Shown: piece after piece, positions 26,725-62,975 of the stretch
How the letters are laid out: each line of letters opens with the position of its first letter
Position numbering within the stretch: position 1 is the first letter of the stretch
NCBI GenBank assembly: GCA_051294375.1
Contig: CM119271.1
Span: forward strand, 6,697,632-6,761,631
From: Paraspadella gotoi
Lineage: Eukaryota > Animalia > Chaetognatha
Direction of reading: 5' to 3'
DNA: 64,000 nt
Notes under the pieces: generated by a model
Databases searched by the model: none
What the model was told of the DNA's origin: nothing
The model's input: only the letters and a program-made list of their open reading frames with translations
Position numbers and translations under genes: made by a program

Positions 26725-28963
26725 TCAACTATCTCCAGAATTCTCGCCCGAACCGTTCTTAAATCCCCTGAGTGCATTCCATTTTCCCAAGATGGTCGCC
26801 GAAATGATGTCAGTCTCTCGCAGCAAATTCACGGCTTCCTGAAGTTTAATATCTGCCTCGTCCATCTCTTCCGATTGTTTTGTTTCGATCTCGATGTTTT
26901 CATCCTTCAAACAGACTTTCTGAAGGGTTTGCGACAATCCCTCCGGACATTCAGACCCATCCGCTTCCTTCAATTTCTCCGAAGAATAAGAAGCGACGTT
27001 TTCTTTGTCGGCGCTCCGGGATCGGCCCTCTGAGGGGAAAACGGCTGAGCCTCCCTGTCCGCGACGAGGAACTATGACGCCTCCGGTTCTCATATAAATT
27101 CTTACAGCTTCGAGAGCCACGATCTGGTCTTCCTCGGAGATGATATACTCCTCAAGCACGTTGTGCCAGAAAACATGATGGGCCGGGTGGATGCGCGGCG
27201 ATAAAAGTCGCGGTCGCGCCTGCACGCGATAGACGGCGACGATAAGATTGTGGACGAGCTCCTCGTGAGTAGACGGCTTTTCGGAGCAACCCTTAGGCAC
27301 AATGATTGAGTTGGTCTGCCTAAGGGCCTGCAAAAACTGCTCCGGAAGTAAGAGGGTTTTTAACTCGCGATGCATCCACCACTGGGTACCCATGGCCTGC
27401 TTATCCTCAAGGTTCATCCAGTGAAGAAAAATTATGTTTAGGTAATTGTAGCGCAGGTAACCGCTTCCCTCGCTGCGCCAATCCCTGGACTCTTCGCCCA
27501 TGAGATAGGCCTTTTTGGCGTCGACGATCGCTTCTTTCCCGTACCCCATCAACCCCTTGACGTAGCCCTGCTTGGAAAGATTGATTTTGACTCGATTCTG
27601 ATCGCGCTTGTCGCAGTTTTGAAGGATTCGGTACTCCTTCATAAAGAATTGCATGGCGCGCCGGTAGTCGTCCTCTTTCGTAGCTCCGGCAGCTCGGCAC
27701 GAAAGGCGCTTCATATAATAATCGCCATAAAATGAAGCAAACGTGGCGGTGATTTTATGATCACCATAACGCTTCTCCGCCTCTTTTAGCACCATGTCGT
27801 GGCCAACATCGCTCTCCTGCACTTGTCCGCCCATCATCTGGAGGTGCGCCTCTTTACTCACCGCGTGAATGTGCTGGATGATGACGTGACACGCGTCTTC
27901 CTTTCCCTCGTACCGATCTCGTGCTTGCTGCCAGTAATCTATAGATCTGGCGCAAAGGTAGCGCAGCTCGGTCTTCCACTCCGCATCACGACGAGTTCCG
28001 TCAATTAGTGGAGCTTTCTCGCGAATCTCCAGGGCCGCGTCATAATACAGACCCATGATGCAGGGGTGGTCCTGCAGTTTGAAGGAGAATTCACCAAATT
28101 ACATTAGCATGCCATGAATGTAAAGGAGAAAAATCGAAAAAAAAGCAAACCAGAACCTCCATGTCGTAGATCTGCTTGGCCCGGACCAAATCTATCTCCA
28201 TATTCTGGATTAGTTCTTTTCGCTCCACTGAGTCGCCCTTTTTTTTCGTGGCCCTGACAACGCAGTGGACCTTTTCTATTCTGATTATGAGCCCAAGAAG
28301 CAGAGGATGATCGCTCCAGTCGGCTTTGTCTAAGACCGCGTCTCGGAATGCCGCGTAGAATTCTCGATCCACTTCTTCCATTCGATCTCTCAAATACCAA
28401 AAGGCGCCGACAACGCTCGCCTCTTCAACGCGCCCGAAAAAGCTCTTGTGGAAGATCTGGCTCCAGAACGACTCAACATATTCGTGGTCACGCTCGTCCT
28501 CAAGCAGGACCTGGCGAAGGGCGTGAAAAATAAGGCGAGAAAGTGCAGCAAACTCAACGCAGCTGGAAGGATAAAGTTCCTTGGAGCTAAAATCGACGGT
28601 GATTTGGCGTAGCTTCTCGATCGTAGTCTCCAAGTGGCGACGGAGCAAATCTTGAATAAGCGAGCGCGTCTCTGTTAACCTGTGCCACGGAACTTCGATC
28701 TGGTATCTCGAGGCGGCGCCGTCCGCTTCGACGCCGTCTATTTCTGAGGCGGGAACGACGACGGGTTCCACGACCCCGAGCTCGACGGCGGCGGCGAGGA
28801 AGTCCTCGGCTGGGGTGTCCACTTTAAAGCCAAGGGACGACTCCACCCACTGAGCCTCGACAAGAGAGAATCCAGATGCAGGCAGAACGCTCCAATGCAA
28901 GAGTCGCTCGAATTCTGTCTCGTTGATTCCGAGCGATTTAAGAAAAACTTCTTTTTGCGTCAT
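26725..28963 (-). CDS. Uncharacterised helical-repeat (TPR-like) protein, ~717 aa, 2 exons
   Basis: Two long ORFs joined in frame by a GT-AG intron at 28072-28156 (..IYDME|DHPCIMGLYYDAALEIREK..). TPR-like segments include DHKITATFASFYG and DYRRAMQFFMKEYRI. The N-terminus resembles a STAND winged-helix. ATG 28963 was chosen because upstream sequence is AT-rich and non-coding-like. Confidence 0.7.
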
Positions 28964-29186
28964 GGTCAATAAAAAAAAAAAGTTTTCAACGTATGAAAGA
29001 TTTGGAGATAACCTGACGTTGAAAAAGCAGATTGGAAAAAAATAAATAACATCCAATTGGTTGAGGACGCGACCCATTAAAAAATAATCATAATACATTA
29101 ATAGTCATTAATAGAAATGCATAATTTCACATAGGTTGTGTTAAAAACTAAAAGGACAACAAGAAAGGTTTGTAAGCTTTAAAGAT

Positions 29187-32523: not shown

Positions 32524-33805
32524 TCAGGTAAACTTGCGGCCCTCGGACGAAGCCTCGTCGGGATCGTCTTCCATGGAGTCGGCGGAAAGTTCGGAAAAAA
32601 CTTGTTCGAAGTCGCACTTCATGAAATCGTAAGTGGCGGCGTCGTCGGCGCTGCAATCCTCGCAGTCGCAGTCTTCATCCGTCAGATCGAGGTCCTGGGA
32701 CACAATACGCAAAATATTTCCCAATGAATCATAAATCGTACCCCAAATATTTACTCCTGCCTCAAAAAAATAAACAAACCTGCTCGTCTTGATCCTCGTC
32801 GTAATGAAGATTAAGACAAGCGTCGCAGTCCTTTTTATCGTCTTCGCAACAGCAGATGGGAATCGAGACGGGATCTTGATTTAACATCGATCATTATTAA
32901 AACTCGAAATCAAATAAATTAATTAAGTTAATCATTTTTTTGAATCAACAGTCGAAACCTGGTATCGGATGCGTTCCAGCGTTGCCCCGCAGATCGGGCG
33001 ACGCGACTGCCTCTTGTCTGTAGTAGTCGGACATTATGAAGGAGGTGGTCAGCGCGGAATTCGAGGGTGCCTTCAACTTGCCCCGTCTGCCACGGAGACT
33101 AGCGAGACCAGAGGGTCCACGACCGCCGCCGCCTCCGCGCTTTGTGCAAAAACGCGGCCGGTTATAGGGCCGGTAGTTCTTTTTGCACTTGCCGCGCGCG
33201 GCGGAATGGTAATGGCCACGTTTTGACTGGTGCGGATGAAAAGGCTTTCCGTGCGAATGATGCGCTTCGTGGTGAGGTTGTTGTCGTTGATTGTAATAGG
33301 GATGCTTGTAGAATGGCCGAGGAGGAAAGACGCCAGGGCCGAAGGCGGGCGGGGGAAAAGCTGGGGGATAAGAGGACGACGGGGGATATGAGGAAGAGAC
33401 CGGAGGCGGCGGAGCCGGAATGTTGGGTCGCGGTTGAACGGAGATTTGATTAGAAAAAGGGTAAATCGTCTTCGGGAGCGGTTGCGACAGTTTGACGCCA
33501 GAAGGAGGAGGTCCGGGCCCCATGATGCCGCCACCTCCCCTGTGGTGGGGATGATGATGTTTGGGCTGGAACGGATGCCGCGGAGGAGGCGGAGGTCCAT
33601 GGTGGCCAACAGCTGAGACACGGTGGTAAGATAACCTTTGCGGTGGAACCAGGGGGCGACGAAACCCGTCGAAGTTGGGTGGCTTGGGGAAGTTGTGACG
33701 TTGGCGATCGCCTCCCATGCCGCCTCGCTTCGCCCTTGGTCCGTCGGAGACTCGTGGCTTCACGAAGACGTATTCGTTATCACCTAATGATTGCTGATTG
33801 GCCAT
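32524..33805 (-). CDS. Pro/His/Arg-rich protein with acidic Cys-rich C-terminus; HEXIM/CCER1-like motifs (3 exons)
   Basis: Exons ~32960-33805, ~32780-32874 and 32524-~32694 join in frame through GT-AG introns. Motifs: YRPYN, APSNSALTTSFIMSDY and FMKCDFEQVF. The gene is well supported; the family assignment is tentative. Confidence 0.6.
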
Positions 33806-34102
33806 ATTGCTTGTAATCGATTTTGTTTTTTGTTTGGTTTTTTGTTTTTCTATTTTTTTGAGTGAAATTTGCTTAGATCATTTTGGCTACACGTAGAATC
33901 AAGTCCCACATAGCTTATTGATCGTCTGAAACAAAAAAAAAATAAGCAACGCTTTAGGTAAATTATTGAAATTTTAAGTAAGTGACAAAAAAGTAAATAT
34001 GTCCGAAAAAACGCGGAATCGAAATAAAATATCAAATAAAAAAACTTTATTTAATTGTGACAAAAGGTCAATTAAAACAAACTTATCACATTGGAAACTT
34101 CA

Positions 34103-36278: not shown

Positions 36279-42530
<6,252 letters not shown>

Positions 42531-42875
42531 GATCGCCTCTTTTTTGTTTTGCGACTTCGTAAAAAATATCTTCACCCAAGTTATGAATAATTTGGTGTAA
42601 ATATCACATTACAAAATTTAATTCATTGTAATTAAAAATATAAACCGTGTTTTAATAAAACAACAATTTCTATCACAGATCTTGCATTTAAAAAATGTAT
42701 TAAAAAAGCATTGAGGAATAACAAGTCCGAACAAAATCTGGAAAGTGACTAGACTAGAATAAAAAATCTTAAAAGTATAAGGATCGTTGCAATCGGCATA
42801 AGAAAAATCTGGATTGACGACAAATTTTTATACTAAAAAAATCAAATTTGAGAAAGGAAAATTAATTTATAAACA

Positions 42876-43525
42876 TGAAGAGACAGTGATATTTGTTATG
42901 TGTTAGTGATAGAACCGTTCAATATAAGCAGTCCCTGAGCTTCGGATCAGGCTGTAACACCATGTTACAGGCGGGTTAAGCGCCCCGTCCCTCTTAACTG
43001 CCAGACGACCACCGGGCTAGAACCCCGGACCTTTGGTTGGGAGGCGAATTGACTTGCCTCCGGCACCAATGGCCGCTGATGAACGGTTGGTGGATTTTAG
43101 TCCACCATACATCCCCCTCCCGTAGGGAGAAGTGTGTTGCGTCTCTTCAGTGAATTGTTGTTGTTGGTGGAAAGTTCATACCAAGTTGAGGCATGTCCGC
43201 TGATGTGTTTGTGGCGGAAAGTGCATCGCCAGGTTGAGGCATGTCGCCTGAAAGTGTTGTTGTTGCTGTTGTGTTCGGAAGTCGGGCTCACCAATGAAGA
43301 GACAGTGATATTTGTTATGTGTTAGTGATAGAACCGTTCAATATAAGCAGTCCCTGAGCTTCGGATCAGGCTGTAACACCATGTTACAGGCGGATTAAGC
43401 GCCCCGTCCCTCTAACTGCCAGACGACCACCGGGCTAGAACCCGACCTTTGGGTTGGGAGGCGAATGACTTGCCTCCGGCACCAATGGCCGCTGATGAAC
43501 GGTTGGTGGATTTTAGTCCACCATA
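42876..43525 (-). mobile_element. Non-autonomous LTR retrotransposon in miniature (TRIM) with tRNA-like sequence inside each LTR
   Basis: Near-identical ~230-bp direct repeats (42876-~43111 and 43295-~43525) with TG..CA ends. On the minus strand the 5' LTR is followed by PBS TGGTGAGCCCGAC (43281-43293), and the 3' LTR is preceded by polypurine tract GGGAGGGGGA (43112-43121). The flanks share (TA)AACA. There is no coding capacity. Confidence 0.9.
43005..43076 (-). ncRNA. tRNA-derived (Gly-CCC-like) degenerate sequence within LTR; second copy at ~43423-43492
   Basis: 72 nt with acceptor stem GCGGCCA/TGGTCGT, A-box-like TGGTGCCGGAGG, loop CTCCCAA and B-box-like GGTTCTAGCCC. The anticodon stem pairs poorly, so this is probably not a functional tRNA. 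Confidence 0.65.
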
Positions 43526-44493
43526 AACAGAAAGAAAAATTATATTTTGCGTTGTCAATTAAAAAAAAATAAAGTACCGAGGAAAATTATAGTTACAGTT
43601 TCTGAAAAAAAAATGAAAAAAGTTTTTTTTTTGTCATAGTCAAATAAACTGATCAGAGACGCAGCCCCTGAGAAAAAAAAATTGAAAAAAAAAAAATTAT
43701 AAACAAAGAAAAATTTTATTTTGCGATTGTCAATTAAAAAAAAATAAAGTACCATGGAAAATTAAAGTTACAGTTTCTGAAAAAAAAAGGGAAAAAAAAT
43801 TTCATTGTCAAAAAATAAATTAATCAGCAGACGCAGCCCCTGAGAAAAAAAAAACGAAATAAAAACCCGATGTTGCGATAGGAAAATGATAACATGCACG
43901 AATGCGACGCCTAATTTTACGAGTTCAATCCTAATTCAATTTTTTTTAAATAAAAACGCAGAGAGAGAGAGAGAGAAAAAAAGAAAGAAATCAAAAGGCA
44001 GCAGCAGAAGCAGCAGGAGAAAAGAGAGAGCCTCTGCAGAGCCAGCTGCAGACTCAAAAGGCAGCAGGAGAAAAAAGAGAAAAAGAATAAGCCCCTGCAG
44101 AGCCAGCTGCAGACTCGTTTTTTCCCCCCTATGAATCAGTGACTAGGAAAAGAGAGAGGGAGAGAGACATATAATTAAAAGAGAAAGAGAGAGAGAAAGA
44201 AATTATATAGAAATAAAAAAGAAAATTTGTTTGTTTTGATTAAACGTAAATAAAACATATTTAATAACTGTCCTGACTTAATTTTAAGCACATCAATGAT
44301 GTGAAGCTGGATATAAATTTTCAGCTTCATACACCCAACTTTAATCATAAAAATGGTGATCTATAATTTGGAACGCCAACGACGACGCCACTTATGTGCA
44401 AAACCACAGAAAAATCGCAAAGCGATTGCGACGATAAAAACAAACCCAACTACGTAAATTTCTCTTAATTTTTTGACGTTAAAATGTTTTCAG

Positions 44494-46094
44494 TCAGGAC
44501 TTTTTTCCTTTCTCCTCCTCTTCTTTATTTTTAGCAATCATATAGCAAATTCCTGCAGTAACTGCGGCGGAAACTCCACCAACCGCTACATAACTCAAGG
44601 CGGTGGAGATGCCCGCATCCCCTCCGCCTTGGTCACTTTCCCGATCCCCTGTTTCGGAGCTTCGACCTTCACAATGACAAGCGGGCGAAACGAACTGACC
44701 CACGATAGGATCGTATGGCCTCACGAGTCGTTCACGTTGGACCGGAACTAATTGACGATCCATTAATTCGCAGCCTACTTCAGAATAGGCGGGCAATACT
44801 TGAGGTACAACAGCTTCGCGAGCGACGACCACGTTTTCGCAATTGGCAGGGAGCCCAAGCTTTCCTGAATTTGTTTCAAAAGTCAATAGGTCATCGCAGG
44901 AAATGGATTGTATAATTTTTCTAGTCCGCTAATTCTTCCGTCACCTGAATATTTTTGTCGGAGAAGTTCCTGAAATTTGACTGCGCAGGCGTAAACTTCG
45001 GGCCATTGGGCAATTCCTCCGGCGACGTTGTTATACGGATTGGCGGGATCCACGATCAGAGGTCGTTGCTCCATCACCTCCCATGGAACTTCGGCGGTTT
45101 TATAATTTTTTTCCCAAACATAACTCAATTTTTCCTTATCGATGAGGACTTCGAGAACTTGATTGAACCAAACCAACATATCGTATTTGGTTCCGGCCAA
45201 TTTCTTTTCATAAGTGTAGAGACAAAGCAGTTCGAGCAGATACGACGGGAATCGTACGCGATTGTACCTTGGCTTCACCTCCGTCTTAAACCAAAATTTA
45301 ACCAGGAGCATCAATTTTTTAAGGTTGTTATTGTTGGTGATATTTAACTTATCGCCAAGAAAATCCTTCTGCAACTCGGCCAAACTAGCTGAGAAATGAT
45401 CGGCAAACCTCATGCTGTGCTCCTGTTTGTGGAAATAGCTGAACACCGGGGCACCATCCCTTCTTTCGGGCGCCACACCGCAGTAGGCGTAGAGGTCAAA
45501 GGCGGGAATAATGTCGACGTCAATCACGTCTTCCGCTTTCTCGGAATCCTCGTCCGGAACCCCATACTCCATCTTAACCCCTCGCGAATGGCTGCAAGGG
45601 ACGAGCTTAAGATTGAGCAAATATTCGTTGTGATAATTGTAGAGCGGAATGAAGGTTTTGTCTCTCAGCTGAGCCAGCGGCACGGCATTTGTCTTTCTCG
45701 TCCAGTAATCACCTACTTTATTCCAGCAATAATAGAAACCGAACTTGTCCATCACGCAACGAATAATCTGCTCGCGCTTTTCCAAGAAATCTTGCGGATT
45801 TGACAGTCGGCCACCTTGCTTTTCTACGAAGCAAACTAGATCGACGTCGACGTGGCCTCTGACCGCGGTTCCTTTTGTCAGTGACCCGCTCTTGAAAATG
45901 CGTTTAAACGACCAAGGAAATTCACGCCCTTCATCGCCGCACATGTCCCGGTGCGATTGCAAAAATCGGGAAGTCTCGTCGACGGCTTTGTTCAAAAATG
46001 TTACGGTATCCCTACTCAGTTGAACATTATCGGAAACGAACTTGGTCAACTCTTTTGCGTTCGGAATGGAATCGAAAAACGAAGAAATCTCCAT
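44494..46094 (-). CDS. 2'-5'-oligoadenylate synthetase-like nucleotidyltransferase; predicted spliced form 506 aa with C-terminal TM segment (unspliced form 403 aa, stop at 44883)
   Basis: Pol-beta NTase motif GSLTKGTAVRGHVDVDLV and third Asp in VDIIPAFD. OAS1_C motifs FSASLAELQKDF, LKKLMLLVKFW, PSYLLELL and RPLIVDPANPYNNVA. Candidate intron 44865-44944 joins it in frame to ORF 44494-44864. Confidence 0.9.
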
Positions 46095-46534
46095 TCCCCG
46101 TCCAATTTTTACTCCGAGCTACAAATCAAAATAAGTGAGCGCAAAATGCACGTTATAAAAAGGGCAAACTCAAAATAACAAGAAAATTAAGAAAACCATG
46201 CCATTTATATGAAATAAATATTAATATTAAATGATACAATCGAAGATGACAAAAAATAAACAAATCACTATCTAATGAAATTACGCACAACATTGGAGAT
46301 GGTGAAAGATTATGAAGAACATTAAATGTTTCAAAATTATTTTCTGAAAACAATGATCGTGAAAAATACGTAGTACTTCCAACAAAGTTACAAACTTCGG
46401 GAAGGTTAAACTTAGTTTGTGAAGCTGGAGATTTTGTTTTTAGAATGAGACTGAATTAAAATTGATTTTTGTTAATTACAAATACAACGTCCATGCAAAG
46501 ATTAATTCTAACGACTTTAAATTCATCCAGTGTG

Positions 46535-47625
<1,091 letters not shown>

Positions 47626-48141
47626 TTTTTTCCCAGAAATTTCCGATTTTGGTCAATACTTAAATTTTTTTCCTGAAAATATATAAATTTAAAAATAATC
47701 CTTAACACTAAAATGTTCAAACCATTTACCTCTAAATCTAAGGGGGGGGGTCTCTTTCATTAAATAAGCAATTACTCGTGACCCTTTACCCGAAGTGGCA
47801 AAGTAAAAGGGTTTGCAATTTTTTTTACGACTAATTAGGACAACTACTTTCGATGAAAACCAACCTCTACACATACCAATAAAATTAAAATAAACATCGA
47901 CTGGAGTAAACGAGCAACAATAATAGGCAAAAACATCAAGAATGATTATTTAACTTGATTTAGCATAGCAACGTCATTATGACTAGTAGGGAAGAATGAA
48001 ACTGGGAGAATCAATATCGATGACCTAATGAGAGAAGGTGACTCAATAGCGGTTAGCCGCCGATTAGAAATTAGTACCGCCAATTTAAAAAAATAAAAAT
48101 AAATAAAAATAAACAAATCCGAAGTTGGTTCGTTCTCCACA

Positions 48142-51100
48142 TCAAGTAGAGGAGACAACAATAGTCCTGACCGACTTGCATTTTTGCAAGACGAGGCAAG
48201 AGGCCTGATTGAAAGGCTCTTGGCTCTTGAAGCCTTCCTCTTCGATCATCCACATCGGAGCCGCCCTCACAGTAAGGGAGCTAAGGTTGTAGAGTCCGAC
48301 GCGATCGAAGCAGGCGATTAACTCGATCTTCGCTTCTGTCCCGGGCGTTAGGCGTCTTTGCCTCACCATCGGCCCCACCCATGAAAAGGGCGACCAAGAG
48401 AGACTCGTGTTCCGATTAGCGGTAGACGCCCCGATACCGCCCGTAGCTTCCGATGACGCCGACTGAGCGTGACCGCCAGTTTCCACGACGAATCCTACGT
48501 CGCAGTCGGATAGGTTGATGATCGATATCAGGATGCGCGCCTTGCAAAATCGGACGGCGGCAAAGTCATGAACGACTCGGTGCGACGGAAACGACAGAGC
48601 GACGGCGAGAAGTTGATTAAGGCTCCCCGGTTTAAGGGTGTCGATCTCCGGCGGACTCTGTTTGCGACGCGAATGATGAATAACCGGTGGAAACACGATC
48701 GGAGGTTTGACTGACAGGTGAGTAGTGTCCGATCCTCCGCAAGGCCGGAAACGAACCAGATCGTCCAGGGAGTCCAGGGTCACGTGATGTTGTCCCATGA
48801 CTGACGAACAGTTACCCATCGCGTCCAATATTGCCGCCTTCCAGAGCACAGTGATAACGGAATCGATCGTCCTGGCCTCCGCGACTCCACGCAAGTTGGC
48901 CTCCCTTTCGATAAACGCTGCATTCTTGGGTAGTAACTCATTGATGCCGCGATGATCGGCGTTGACCGAATCAATGCGTTGCCGCCAGAGGGAAAACCGG
49001 GCAAAAGGAAAGCAGGTGGCGTCAATCTCGTCTCCGCTAACGACCACGCTGCTTCCGGTCGAGGATTCAACGTCGGCGCTCTTGTCGCCACTGAGGGTGA
49101 GCAGCAGGTTTTCGGCGGCGTTGAACGTCCCTCTCCCTGATGCCTCTCCGCGGACGCAATCGAGGAGCCTCAGGCGCCGCGAAAAGGCGGAAATCTGCAG
49201 GAGTTGAAATTCGACAGCCGCGTCAACGGCGTCGTCCGGAACTCGTCGCTGCCCGTTTGCGGCATTGTGCATTTCTAAGTCAAGAGCAACGACGCCACCA
49301 CTCGTTGTTGACTCTGACGAACCGATCTCCGCTTGGTTTTCCGCAAAATTTCCACGGGATGCGACTGCGACGAATTGAAGCGAGGGTCGAGAGACGAGAA
49401 TGGATTTGTGGTAAAGAACTCGATACGGTAATCGCGGGTGACGCCACTCGGCAGGTGCTTCGTAATAAAACATAATCTTAAAAGAATGAAGGCCCGGTTT
49501 GTCTGGGCCACGCACCCAAACCGGAACGAAGCAAGACTCGCTCGGACGCAGTGATTCCCCCGGCGAGTGAAGCTTTAAGCAGGGAGAATCGTTGGACGAC
49601 TGGGAAAATAATCGCCTCCAGTCAAGTTCGGAATGGTGACGAAGTTGATCCGCCTCGGCCTTTGAGGACACCAGCCGTTCTCCGAAAGCCACTACGTCTG
49701 GTAAGTTACTAACGACGGTGAGGTTTAAAAGATCCACGGCTCCTTTGTTTTTCAACTCTGCCACACAGAAATGCAGTTGGCCGCCGAGAAGAGTCTCCGG
49801 AAACGGAGGCTCAACGGCGTCGGAAGAATTGGAATTTGATGACGATGCATGAAACTTAAGCCCGAGACAAGGTTGTCGGCAAACCACTTCGAGGGACAAA
49901 CGCTTGTCCTCACCATACACCAAGCTCTTCTTCTCCGCTTTGGTGTTATTGAGTCTGGGTCCCCGACAGTAGAGACGTTGAAAACCGTTTATAGCCATGG
50001 ACGCGTAACCGCGTTTGAAGGAACTCGGCGACGACGAGCCAGTAGGCGTGAGGGCTGAAGAACCAGCAGCCGAGACCGCAGCTGCGATTTGAGACTGGGA
50101 AGTGGAACCCAGAGAGTAGTCTATGCCGGTCACAGTCAAATAACCGCGCCGTCGAGGCACCAGCTTTAAAACAACCGCTTGAATAGTTCCAGCCGGAAGA
50201 ATGAACTCCGGCAGAGTCTCTGCTTCAACGTCGATCGAAGAAGGGGCATCATCGGCATCCGGTGCAAGAGTAAATTCCCAGCGCAGACGAATGTCGCACA
50301 GAACGAGCGGAACTTTGAGCGGATTGGAGGCCTTAATCTGAAAGGCGATGGGTTCGTCGACGGCCGTGAGAGGGGACGAGTTGTTCGATGTGTTTCGCGA
50401 TAAGAGACGCACTTGCGGTTTGAACCCTAGCATCATGTTGGGCGGAAGCTTGCCATTCCCAGCGGCGTTCCGAACTAACGCTTCCTCGAGACGCGCCCAC
50501 TCCCGGCCTTCTTCTTTGGTCGACGTTAATTCGGAAAAGTCAACCGAGGAAGCGTTTCCGAAAAGGACAGCGGCCGAAGCCCTCTCCGCTTCGTCTCCAT
50601 CGCGACTCTGCGGAGAGAGGTAGGCTTGGGTCGAAGGGCAGCCGAGCATGACCTTCGTTTCATTCTGTTCGATGGTGGGAAGATGAAGCTCGATCGCTGA
50701 ATCGGAACCACTTGGAAGTAGCAGCTGTTTCATAACATAGAGGTACTCTTTCAAAAAAGCAGTTTGTTGATGAGGCGTTTGAACGCTGCGTTCGGTCAAG
50801 AGCTTCTTGAAGGCGGAAGCGGCGTCGTCGAGGTTTTTGAGGTTGAAAGACTGCCGGCCGATGGTAAAGTTAATATGGTCTTCGGCGGGAGACCATCCTC
50901 GGCCGCAATATACGCTCATAGCCGCTTCGTAGCACCTCAGGGCATGCTGCCGTTGCGAAGCCTTACTAAAGCGATGACCGGCCAAAATCATATGGAATGC
51001 GTATTTGCGCACCATGGGAGTTTTCATGGCGAGAAAGCAGTGAGCCGCCTGTTCTAACAAAACGGCGCTTCGGAGGTCAGAGTCCTCCGACGTCATCTTG

Positions 51101-53245
51101 ATGAACTGCATGGCGGCGTCAGTGTAGTAACGCTGGCACTTGAGCGCCTCCGTGGAAATCATGACGGCGCGAGTAGCGAGGCCTGGCATCTTGCAGGTAG
51201 AGTCGTATGTGGTGATAGCTTGTTCCATGTAGCGCGTTGGATAAGGTTGACGTGATCCCCCATTGTGATTGGACTGGTGTTGCATGAAGTGGCTCACGGC
51301 GGCCATCTCCAGAGCACCGGCATAAAATGGCCAAGCTTGGTCAGTCTGAAAGTCCTTTTTAGCAGTGTAGTAATGCTTGAAAGCAAGTTCATAGTTTTGA
51401 AACATAAAGCTGATATCGGCAAGTCGCCGCAACTGTAACTCAGGACCCTCGGGGGCATAGGGACACTGAAGCAAACCCGTTTGGCGAAGAGGGTTGGAGG
51501 AGTTGGGACCATTACTGGACCGGTTCCCGAATAATCCCCATTTTCGAGTTCCTTGAAATCTTCCAAGAAGACCTTGCCGAGAGGCGACCTAATTTATAAA
51601 TCAAAGCAATAGTTACAACGCATAAACTTGTAATATGTAGTTCGTTTACCTGTTCATTAAGGTTACGCATGGTTCTTTCCACCCAGGGGACCAAACCGCG
51701 AACACAAAATTCGTGAATAAAAATTTTGATTCGATCCTGGTCACTGACAGTGAGGCATAACCCATGGGGGACGTTTGACGTGGACGCCTCGACGCCTTGC
51801 GAGCTAAAAAAGCTGGATGATCGACGGAAGGATTCCTCGCCGTCGCCAAGAAACGTGGGATCGCACGAGAATGATCCAAAGCCTGCGGTAGATGAGAAAA
51901 GGATTTAAAGAAAATACTTAAGTAAATATAGTTTGTAAATTGGATTGGAAAAGGAATTAGACGATAGACGGGGAGAGGAAATGGATAAGAGAGGAAAGAC
52001 ATAATTTATTTTGTTATTTCTCAGACATAAATTTTATCTCACCAGAACCGGCGATCCTATCGTCATCCTCAACAGGTTGAGCTCCATTTGAATTGGAGAG
52101 CGGGTGATCCACGACGGCCCCGACAACTGCCATCCCGTCGTCGGCATCGGACTCGAGCACGTCAACGGCGACGTCGACGACCGTGTTAGCCTGCTCGGTT
52201 ACTCTGGAAGGCAGGCCGGCCAAGTCGAGATCGCTGCCACCGCAAACGCTGCGGCTGAGACTGCTGGAGTCGGCCTTCGAATCCGGCTCCGCGACAGTAA
52301 CAACGCCGTTCAGTGGGGACGTCCGTGCCGACGCCGACGAGACATTTTTCGACAAAAAAAGCGCCCAGGGATCGGGAAAGTTGTTGCCTTCTTCGACGAG
52401 AAAACGTTCCACGCTTGATGCCGGACGAGAGTTTATTTGCAGCAAATGGCAATTGGTGGCCCCGTAGGCGTTCTTCATGCTCTGATAGACGGACTCTGCC
52501 CTGCCTTGAGCCCCATCCGAAACGTCGTGGAGTAGGACGTAGTATTTGTAAGTGTTGGAGGAAAACCACTTGGGATAAGGACGAGGAGGCATCATCGTTT
52601 GAGCCTTGTGTTGATCGGCTGTGAGCCGATCGAAGGTCGCCATCGGGTCATCAACGCCGCTAGAGACCACGAACACGCAAGCGAGGAAGTGGCGGAGAAA
52701 CTCCGTATCGATGGGCCACTGGCAGCCAAGGAACGCCTCGCGAAAGGCATCGTACCATGGAGTTGCTCGGCAGATTTCAAATTGGTAGTCCCCCACAGAT
52801 AACGTTTCTCTGTCTGAAAGATTGATATTGGCAAGTTATCCTTGGAAGGAAAAAACCGAGTGTAAAATTACACACGAATAAAATTTTCGATAGCATTTTT
52901 TTTTTTAAATTCTTTTATCGTTTCTTTTTTAAAATAACCTGCATTTGGCGGAAGTCGAGTTTTTGCCACAACTTCGGATAAGACTTTCTTCGCGAGAGTG
53001 GCTTGTGGGGGTGGAGTAATGGTGTCCTTGATCGCGAGTTTTAGGTTACTGACGGTATAGGCATACCCGCTGGGGTCGCGCACGCTTATTTCCGCGTTGA
53101 GGCGACTGAATGGCTGCAACAACTCCACCAAAGTCAAATTGTTTTTAGCACAAACGACGTCACAGTCGTCGCTGCATATCACAGCGATGTGGGGACTAAA
53201 TGTGCTTTTTACAAACTCGTCGTAAGGTTGCAAACACTGAGCCAT
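48142..53245 (-). CDS. TRAPPC8: Trafficking protein particle complex subunit 8 (TRAPPIII; ~4 exons)
   Basis: Start MAQC..FSPHIAV..ELLQPFSRL; TPWYDAFRE; EFLRHFLAC; PELQLRRLADISFMFQNYELA; DSDLRSAVLLEQAAHCF; RKYAFHMILAGHRFSKA; GPRLNNTKAEK. The last exon is ~3.4 kb (48142-51588). Confidence 0.95.
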
Positions 53246-59195: not shown

Positions 59196-60020
59196 TTAAG
59201 GTCCAATATAAACAAAACGAGCACTGCATAAAGTATCATAGCGAATAAAGCCGTCCTTATAAAGTGTAGAAAAGATTAACTTTTTACCTTTTTCAATCGA
59301 CACAATCTTGACGAAATCGTTTCGAAGAAACAATCTCTGAACATTCTTCAGAAATTCTTCATGGGAGGATTTCTCAGCTACGTCAGACGATTCAAAAAAA
59401 AGAACATTATTTATACTTATCTTATAAGATTTTGGACGACATTGATAAATGGAAAATTCTAAATCAAGCGCGTCGGCTGCATTCTTCAATACATCTCCAA
59501 AGTTGCTTGAGCTGCCGTTCAATTTCACAGAATATAAAAATTCGCATAATGGTTTCAATTGATAAAGCTGTCGTTCATCTTGTTCAAATGAAAATTTGAA
59601 TGAATCATCTCGAGCAGTGAGCGGGGCTGGTACTATACGAAAAATGGAATTAAACTGTTTAAATGTTTTCACAACCTGGAGGTATTTTGCCAACTCTTCT
59701 TCTGGGGGCTCGTCCATGCCAGCCACATTTTTTAAACGATTTTTCTCATAAAGTAATTTTTGATAGATATTTTGAATTTCATTTTTCGTTAAGGTGGATG
59801 CTTTTTTATCCAACAGAAGCATATCTATTTCGTCCAGACCGAATAATTGATCACAAGCTATTTCATCACCCCCTCTTTGAGCCAATACATTCTGAATGTA
59901 TTGTTGTAAATTTTTACTCTTTTTATCAGCAACAAATTTCAAAAAACTTTGCAAGTCACTTGTTTGTCTGTATTTCAAAATATCCAATTCCATTTCTGCA
60001 GTTAATGATTGCAAGTATAC
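59196..60020 (-). CDS. Terminal exon of an uncharacterised gene; C-terminal part weakly resembles the CDKN2AIP/NKRF dsRBD-like domain
   Basis: Open frame of ~274 codons directly after a T-rich acceptor (TTTTTTTTAG|G at ~60021). The segment NFGDVLKNAADAL..KISINNVLF..VQRLFLRNDFVKI recalls the CDKN2AIP C-terminus from memory only. Upstream exons were not identified. Confidence 0.55.
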   Translation of the reverse strand, partial: VYLQSLTAEMELDILKYRQTSDLQSFLKFVADKKSKNLQQYIQNVLAQRGGDEIACDQLFGLDEIDMLLLDKKASTLTKNEIQNIYQKLLYEKNRLKNVAGMDEPPEEELAKYLQVVKTFKQFNSIFRIVPAPLTARDDSFKFSFEQDERQLYQLKPLCEFLYSVKLNGSSSNFGDVLKNAADALDLEFSIYQCRPKSYKISINNVLFFESSDVAEKSSHEEFLKNVQRLFLRNDFVKIVSIEKGKKLIFSTLYKDGFIRYDTLCSARFVYIGP

Positions 60021-61798: not shown

Positions 61799-62975
61799 AA
61801 AATCTTAGAAGCAATAAGGATCGTCGCAATTCGCATAAGAAAAATCTGGATTGACAACAAATTTTTATAATAAAAAAAAAATCAAATTTGAGAAAAGAAA
61901 AAATTAATTTATAAACAAAAAAAGAAAGAAAAAAAATAAATATAAAGAAAGAATACGAAAGGAAAGAAAAAAGAAAGAAAAAAAGAAAAGAAAGAAAAAA
62001 TATTCAGAAGAACAGAACACGAAAAGAAAGTATAAAAGAAAAGAAAGAAAGAAGAGAAAAGAAAGAAAGGAAAGAAAGAATAGAAAGGAAAAAAAGGAAA
62101 AGAATAGAAAGGAAAAAAAGAATAGAAAAAAAGAAAGAATAGAAAGGAAAAAAGATAGAAGGAAAAAAAATAAAAAGGAAAAAAAAATAAAAGGAAAGAA
62201 AGAATAAAAAGGAAAGAAGGAATAAAAAGGAAAGAGAAGAATAAAAAGGAAAGAAAGAATAAAAATGAAAGAAAGAATAGAAAGGAAAGAAAGATTAGAA
62301 AGGAAACCAAGAACAGAAAGGAAAAAATAGAAATAAAAATAAAGAGAGAGTGACGAGAAGAAAGAACGAATAAAAAACCCGATGTTGCGAATATGCAAAA
62401 ATGATAACATAACAAATGCTAAGCCTAATTTTACCGAGTTCAATCCTCATTCAATTTTTTTTTTTTAATAAACCGCAGGAGAAGAGAGAAGCCAAACTCG
62501 TTTTTCGGACGAATGCAGCAGCGGCAGCAGCAGAGGCAACCCAGAAAAAAAAGAAATCAAAAGGCAGCAGCAGAAGCAGCAGGAGAAAAGACGAGAAAAA
62601 GAATAAGCTCCTGCACGAGCCAGCTGCAGACGCGTCTTTTCCCCCTATGATCATGCACAGGGAAAGAGAGAGGGAGAGAGACATATAATTAAAGAGAAAA
62701 GAGAGAGAGAAAGAAATATAAAATAAAGAGAAAGAAAATTTGTTGTGTTTTGATATAAACGTTAAACAAAACATTTAAAAACTTTTCCAGCTCTAATGTT
62801 TAAGCACATCGATGATGAGAAGCTGTTAATATAAATTTCTCCAGCTTCATACACACCCAAATTTAATCATAAAAAAGGCGATCCTACCTAATTTGGAACG
62901 ACGACGCACCAACGCCACTTATGGCGCAAAAGCGATAAAATATCGTCCGGCAAACCGCTAAACGATTTGCGACAA
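61799..62975. mobile_element. Dispersed non-autonomous repeat, copy B (no TRIM; expanded GAAA-rich tract ~61915-62350)
   Basis: Shares TAAGGATCGTCGCAAT..AAAATCTGGATTGAC, CCCGATGTTGCGA, TTTTACCGAGTTCAATCC, GGCAGCAGCAGAAGCAGCAGGAG and AACGCCACTTATG blocks with copy A. Confidence 0.75.

Follow-up and report, generated by a model that had tools for sequence, protein, structure and literature searches.

Results

The window, the whole 64-kb stretch of DNA that we analyzed, belongs to an invertebrate animal with a compact genome. The nearest named matches to its MCCC2 gene come from a pycnogonid and a shrimp, both at 77%. Eight genes could be identified between positions 1 and 60020, namely an LRP1-like gene (recognized by reading), a methyltransferase, MCCC2, a DDX46-like gene, an oligoadenylate synthetase (OAS) gene, ZC4H2, TRAPPC8, and a poly(A) polymerase. 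All eight lie on the minus strand, an arrangement with a probability of about 0.008 by coin toss. Long minus-strand ORFs at 26725-29104, 32945-33877, and 59196-60020 have no Pfam match at E 0.01, no second OAS occurs in the window, and no Rfam family reaches its gathering score within 40000-52000. The genes around OAS are closely spaced. The contig for TRAPPC8 stops at 47742; 70 nt further on, at 47673, an acceptor-like TTTCAG precedes the start of ZC4H2. The contig for ZC4H2 in turn runs to 46119, where an acceptor-like TTTGTAG immediately precedes the start of OAS (46100-46120). This operon-like packing, together with an unaligned stretch of 30 nt at the beginning of the OAS contig, makes either spliced-leader trans-splicing or unseen 5' exons possible.

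Two repetitive features lie beyond the 3' end of the OAS gene. At 42875-43525, an interior of 185 nt is bordered on each side by a direct repeat of about 235 nt; on the minus strand, a motif resembling a TGG primer site follows the first copy, and a purine tract precedes the second. The feature looks like a miniature LTR element (TRIM) and has no Rfam match. A dispersed repeat at 44205-44420, just past the OAS 3' UTR, is 81% identical to a copy at 62716-62931 and is matched by many deep contigs of the sequencing run X1 described below.

The OAS gene contains an ORF at 46094-44883 on the minus strand that encodes 403 amino acids (aa) if read through; removal of an 80-nt intron yields a protein of 506 aa. 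The intron (44865..44944, minus strand) is a phase-1 GT-AG intron with the donor CAG/GTGACG at 44945/44944 and the acceptor AAATTCAG/G at 44865/44864, and it contains the stop codon of the unspliced frame (44885-44883). Coding exon 1 (44945..46094, minus strand) carries the whole OAS unit (residues 1-383), comprising the nucleotidyltransferase (NTase) lobe and OAS1_C, as delimited by Pfam, an alignment to pig OAS1, and a structure model. Coding exon 2 (44494..44864, minus strand), in frame once the intron is removed, carries a nonconserved linker of about 87 residues, a hydrophobic helix, a 12-residue polar tail, and the stop codon.

Splicing of this intron is directly visible in transcript contigs. 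Among public sequencing runs, the stretch was found in X1, whose record does not state that it is RNA. A 1671-nt contig of this run, aligned at 46100-44380 (44380..46100, minus strand) except for its first 30 nt, covers both coding exons and skips exactly 44865-44944, with CT..AC ends on the plus strand and zero depth inside the intron. Because three GT-AG introns (61, 63, and 103 nt) of the neighboring TRAPPC8 and ZC4H2 genes are likewise skipped in X1, this run behaves as RNA, and the sizes of these introns make 80 nt typical. Three coding positions differ between the contig and the window, so X1 represents another allele or individual. Run X2 gave no contigs aligned to the stretch, and X3 gave one, on a neighboring gene. 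The splicing evidence thus consists of contigs from one run of one study, and contig assembly drops rare forms. Six alternative GT-AG pairs (at most 130 nt apart) could equally lead into the tail frame; the contig shows none of them. An AATAAA at 44524-44529 falls within the final coding codons, some 30 nt ahead of the OAS stop, and appears unused, as the contig continues to 44380. The gene, its intron, and its tail are real and their coordinates exact; the original prediction, made from the sequence alone, had proposed both an 80-nt intron of typical size and the in-frame fusion of OAS to an extension with a hydrophobic helix, and the spliced contig bears out both.

The encoded protein has the architecture of an OAS-related nucleotidyltransferase, with an NTase domain followed by OAS1_C as judged from profile matches. 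The Pfam OAS1_C profile matches with E 1.4e-24 (87 bits against a cut-off of 19.9), and NTP_transf_2 and SMODS fall slightly below their cut-offs (19.4 bits against 21 and 24.3 against 26.5, respectively). Pig OAS1 matches with E 6e-27, and its N-lobe aligns as well. A structure model with a mean pLDDT of 69.5 matches 4rwn in Foldseek (E 2e-14, TM 0.66). The best 10 Foldseek matches are all OAS chains (E 2e-14 to 1e-10), with CdnC at 1e-6 and a beetle cGLR at 4.5e-5; the modeled fold resembles OAS1 more closely than it does cGLR, CD-NTase, or DZF. Aligned to the DxD motif of pig OAS1 are D83 and D85 (codons at 45840..45848, minus strand), and aligned to pig OAS1 D147 is the third catalytic aspartate, D194 (45513..45515, minus strand); all three are invariant across the aligned sequences (9/9). 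A P-loop GS is also present (G70-S71). With the P-loop GS and the three aspartates intact, the protein is, by its residues, a catalytically intact OAS-family nucleotidyltransferase, in agreement with the OAS identity and the intact aspartate triad that had been predicted.

A distinguishing feature of this protein is its C-terminal end. Residues 472-494 of the spliced form (44533..44601, minus strand) form a predicted tail-anchor helix that is the only strongly hydrophobic window of the 506-aa protein, with the top hydropathy windows all falling within 467-495. Its Kyte-Doolittle mean is moderate (1.85 over 19 residues and 1.68 over 23), and it lies in a Gly/Ala-rich run of 28 residues devoid of D, E, K, and R. 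The helix is followed by a Lys-rich polar tail of 12 residues with a net charge of +1, and the protein ends with neither a CaaX motif nor a Cys among its final four residues. A single C-terminal helix with a short polar tail is the layout of a tail-anchored protein, here with moderate hydrophobicity.

The helix is conserved in a relative. OAS identity, splicing, and such conservation were the points on which the original prediction had offered itself for refutation, and all three are supported. P0011, a cluster member of 539 aa whose core is 53% identical, has a homologous C-terminal helix (hydropathy 1.64), after which comes a polar tail that likewise has a net charge of +1. The score of the helix alignment was reached in 0/5000 whole-tail and 0/5000 within-helix shuffles (BLAST E 3e-4), and the linker between core and helix is unalignable, such that the last third of exon 2 alone aligns. 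Because the helix is kept in register with P0011 despite the diverged linker, it is under selection, a conclusion that draws on one gene cluster consisting of P0011 and its fragment P0010. The single-sequence fold of P0011 is poor (mean pLDDT 36, terminal helix about 60). A search of the tail alone against longer proteins returned 0/480 candidates; these were cluster representatives, of which P0011 is not one, so it was missed. Against Pfam the tail gave only a pilin match at E 0.097, and an Atlas search gave no usable match.

These properties make it very probable that the helix is a membrane anchor, and it likely inserts as a tail anchor in an organelle membrane. Alternatively, the conserved segment could be a peripheral or lipid-droplet helix, an acylated segment, or a partner-binding helix that does not span a membrane. 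The low hydropathy and the abundance of Gly, Ala, Ser, and Thr would suit such a role, the conserved Cys at the end of the segment would suit acylation, and the conservation of specific residues goes beyond hydrophobicity and exceeds the needs of a simple anchor. However, the 28 uncharged residues between charges at the extreme C-terminus match the tail-anchor layout, and the hydropathy is within the range reported for known mitochondrial anchors (PMC5450235), which leaves a nonspanning role distinctly unlikely.

The original prediction had named the ER, the mitochondrion, or the peroxisome as the destination of the anchor. According to PMC5450235, mammalian tail anchors have mean tail charges of +6.03 (peroxisomal), +1.12 (mitochondrial), and +0.21 (ER), and yeast ER tail anchors have a hydropathy >1.75. 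With hydropathy below 1.75 and a tail charge of +1, a mitochondrial or ER location fits better than a peroxisomal one under this rule from mammalian cells. We therefore retain the first two destinations and disfavor an exclusively peroxisomal one, given a tail charge of +1 against a mean of +6.0. The chance that the target is the mitochondrial outer membrane falls somewhat short of even, the ER or endomembrane system has perhaps a third of the probability, and the peroxisome is highly improbable.

In regard to isoforms, it had been proposed that the 80-nt intron is retained in a regulated manner, which would let the gene alternate between a soluble enzyme of 403 aa and an anchored one of 506 aa. 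The retained frame does keep the entire OAS core, and the acceptor has 8/17 pyrimidines, the fewest among four verified introns (9, 10, and 12 in the others). Retention of a last intron would also escape junction-dependent decay, and an anchorless form does exist in the relative P0004, by a different route. In addition, human OAS1 p42 is reported to derive from sequence that is intronic in p46 (PMC7612834). Against such a switch, none of the contigs on 44460-45360 in run X1 (0/1) retains the intron, although rare retention may go unseen in contigs of a single run. The unspliced frame stays open for 20 codons, and a length of at least 20 arises in 24% of 10000 shuffles of the intron interior (P=0.24), so a 403-aa form is the ordinary outcome of leaving a last intron unspliced. 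Neither AATAAA nor ATTAAA occurs within or directly after the intron.

Relatives of the protein also argue against a retention switch. Seven of them reach the intron position and then soon end, all within 1-14 unrelated residues that have no common sequence or length; five of these are fragments outside the tree. Six of the seven have a residue at this position that is compatible with a phase-1 GT donor, five of them Gly and one Ser; P0036 is the exception. We read these short ends, from the protein ends themselves, as gene-caller read-throughs of a conserved intron; pattern searches for the DNA around the relatives gave 0/284 and 0/212 confirmed matches in metagenome contigs and 0/174 in viral contigs. 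A retention switch is thus very unlikely, and we take the anchored form as the default product, with the 403-aa form at most a minor unspliced species.

A different kind of variation is seen between P0004 (463 aa) and P0011. Up to residue 435 the two show a single difference, and beyond it they diverge. The final 29 codons of P0004 are consistent with a shifted reading frame of P0011 (the longest such run in 200 shuffles is 13), which implies a deletion of 35 nt, and the contigs behind the two proteins, of 2234 and 2269 nt, differ by 35 nt. P0004 is consequently frameshifted and lacks the anchor. The 35-nt piece cannot start with GT but may have a terminal AG, provided that TCA is used for one Ser codon, and P0010, a separately called ORF that starts inside this piece, fits an intron just upstream. 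The difference fits an alternative 3' acceptor, and it would also fit an allelic indel or an assembly error. A splice toggle may therefore exist in this clade, at a site and through a mechanism different from those first proposed.

We placed the protein among its relatives with a quick tree of 115 OAS units and a more careful tree (LG+G4, no mixture) of 44 of those 115 rows, both without an outgroup. In the quick tree, the protein groups with environmental sequences in a clade of 11 rows (SH-aLRT 99), and this clade lies outside another of 42 rows that includes five vertebrate rows. The careful tree recovers its clade with 100/100 support outside the 9-row OASa group and joins this clade and P0034 with OASa against 27 other rows (99/97), a relationship that the quick tree leaves unresolved. 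The protein is, on these phylogenies, outside OASa, the jawed-vertebrate OAS1/2/3/L group; as for a grouping with OASb, the trees are unrooted and include none of the sequences of Chu et al. 2023.

Most invertebrate OAS-related matches end soon after the core, unlike this clade, which adds a long tail. Within their final 45 residues, only 3/154 matches have a hydropathy window of at least 1.6; these are Mytilus P0049, a fragment of 147 aa, and an end rich in Phe. This is an undercount because many matches are fragments or unspliced calls. Mytilus P0049 (XP_063396435) is a two-unit protein of another clade whose hydrophobic C-terminal helix is common to three species. Homology between this helix and the chaetognath tail is weakly supported (score reached in 110/5000 within-helix shuffles, although in only 15/5000 whole-tail shuffles), and the union of the clade with Mytilus OAS is rejected in the careful tree (AU p 0.0038). 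The hydrophobic tails of the two groups are thus likely to be independent gains. CaaX-like ends are found in Porites P0066 (marked partial) and Mytilus P0118.

Discussion

We propose that this locus encodes a default-spliced, likely tail-anchored, catalytically intact OAS with an RNA-triggered role in defense, a reading to which we assign a probability of about 0.47. In this model, the gene is spliced at its sole coding intron to give a 506-residue OAS-family nucleotidyltransferase whose helix would insert posttranslationally, placing the 12-residue tail inside an organelle and leaving the core facing the cytosol. Upon meeting foreign RNA, the core would make oligoadenylate second messengers from ATP. 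These might combine 2'-5' and 3'-5' linkages, as the products of sponge enzymes do, and would act through an effector other than RNase L. The antiviral role is suggested by analogy with OAS1 p46, OAS2, and Oas1b.

The original prediction had pointed to the lack of an RNase L-like gene in the window, an observation that is uninformative for a 64-kb eukaryotic stretch; the expectation comes from the literature. RNase L with intact domains has been placed at the jawed-vertebrate ancestor, and OASb is described in the same study as showing no coupling to RNase L in yeast (PMC10400998). Another effector is therefore to be expected.

Alternatively, the protein may be a membrane-anchored enzyme that acts independently of RNA, a sponge-type synthetase of 2'-5'/3'-5' oligoadenylates that is constitutively active and serves regulation or metabolism at an organelle surface, with no part in sensing viral RNA. 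Several properties of the core would fit this idea. Its pI is 7.0 with a net charge of 0, and four close relatives have pI values of 6.5-7.1, compared with 8.2-8.7 for five other OAS cores, including those of amphioxus and coral. The positions of pig R198, K203, and R209, which we take to function in RNA or nucleotide binding, are occupied by G, N, and L. The neutral core and the loss of these basic residues count against strong dsRNA binding, although bulk charge is a crude proxy for an RNA-binding surface. Furthermore, the equivalents of pig T187 and T190 align as Ala236 and Ala239, and Hu et al. associate substitutions of this kind with sponge enzymes whose products include 3'-5' links as well (PMC6307210), which suggests a relaxed 2' specificity here. 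Sponge OAS is reported to be dsRNA-independent, and older-branching OAS are described in the same source as not linked to interferon (PMC6307210). The uncoupling of OASb from RNase L and the tight packing of the OAS gene amid housekeeping genes on one strand would also be in keeping with such a function. On the other hand, repeated gains of membrane anchors in OAS are otherwise associated with virus restriction (PMC13372824), and we regard an RNA-independent enzyme as doubtful.

The proposed anchored RNA sensor can be compared with several known systems. Mammalian OAS proteins are reported to require membrane attachment, which they achieve by three different means (PMC13372824). One of these is the C-terminal transmembrane domain of mouse Oas1b, the flavivirus resistance protein, which loses its function when the tail is lost (PMC13372824, PMC5473748). 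Like Oas1b, the chaetognath protein combines a single OAS unit with a C-terminal transmembrane domain, here a predicted one. Unlike Oas1b, which is catalytically inactive, ER-localized, and a member of vertebrate OASa, it retains the catalytic triad, carries a long linker, and falls outside OASa. Courtney 2012 is the primary paper on mouse Oas1b. The two tails are inferred to be nonhomologous from the tree, the Oas1b sequence itself lying outside the comparison.

Human OAS1 offers a second parallel, as its last exon brings the membrane signal of p46 and splicing decides whether this signal is present (PMC8357416, PMC7612834). It differs in that p46 is prenylated at a CaaX motif that the chaetognath protein lacks, its second isoform has been shown, and OAS1 signals to RNase L. 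Human OAS2 is likewise an OAS enzyme attached to a membrane (as reported in 10.1101/2025.01.28.635220), but it is held by an N-terminal lipid (N-myristoylated, at the Golgi) and has two OAS units and a zinc dimer. Closer in domain content are OASb (Chu et al. 2023) and sponge OAS, which share an NTase domain with OAS1_C, the lack of a ubiquitin-like domain, and a position outside the jawed-vertebrate clade; the acceptor-pocket substitutions of the chaetognath protein are sponge-like. The titles and beginnings of abstracts that we searched contain no description of a transmembrane-anchored invertebrate OAS, and relevant information may be present in the supplement and domain figures of Chu et al.

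It is also conceivable, if unlikely, that OAS has been tethered repeatedly in invertebrates without interferon or RNase L, as the anchor of this clade, the Mytilus anchor, and the CaaX-like ends in Mytilus and Porites might indicate, and that a splicing toggle sets an active mitochondria-anchored RNA sensor against a soluble form, with an effector local to the membrane.

A transmembrane OAS is already known in mouse Oas1b, and what is new here is one predicted to be catalytically intact, outside vertebrate OASa, and in a lineage expected to be without RNase L. The surprise is limited because mammals already have three routes of membrane attachment, one of them a transmembrane tail. Nevertheless, a catalytically intact transmembrane OAS would provide a counterpart with which to compare the inactive Oas1b. 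A conserved anchor shows where the enzyme works, and hence where its ligand and effector may be sought. More broadly, our findings suggest that the placement of OAS at membranes is an old and repeated solution rather than a mammalian refinement.
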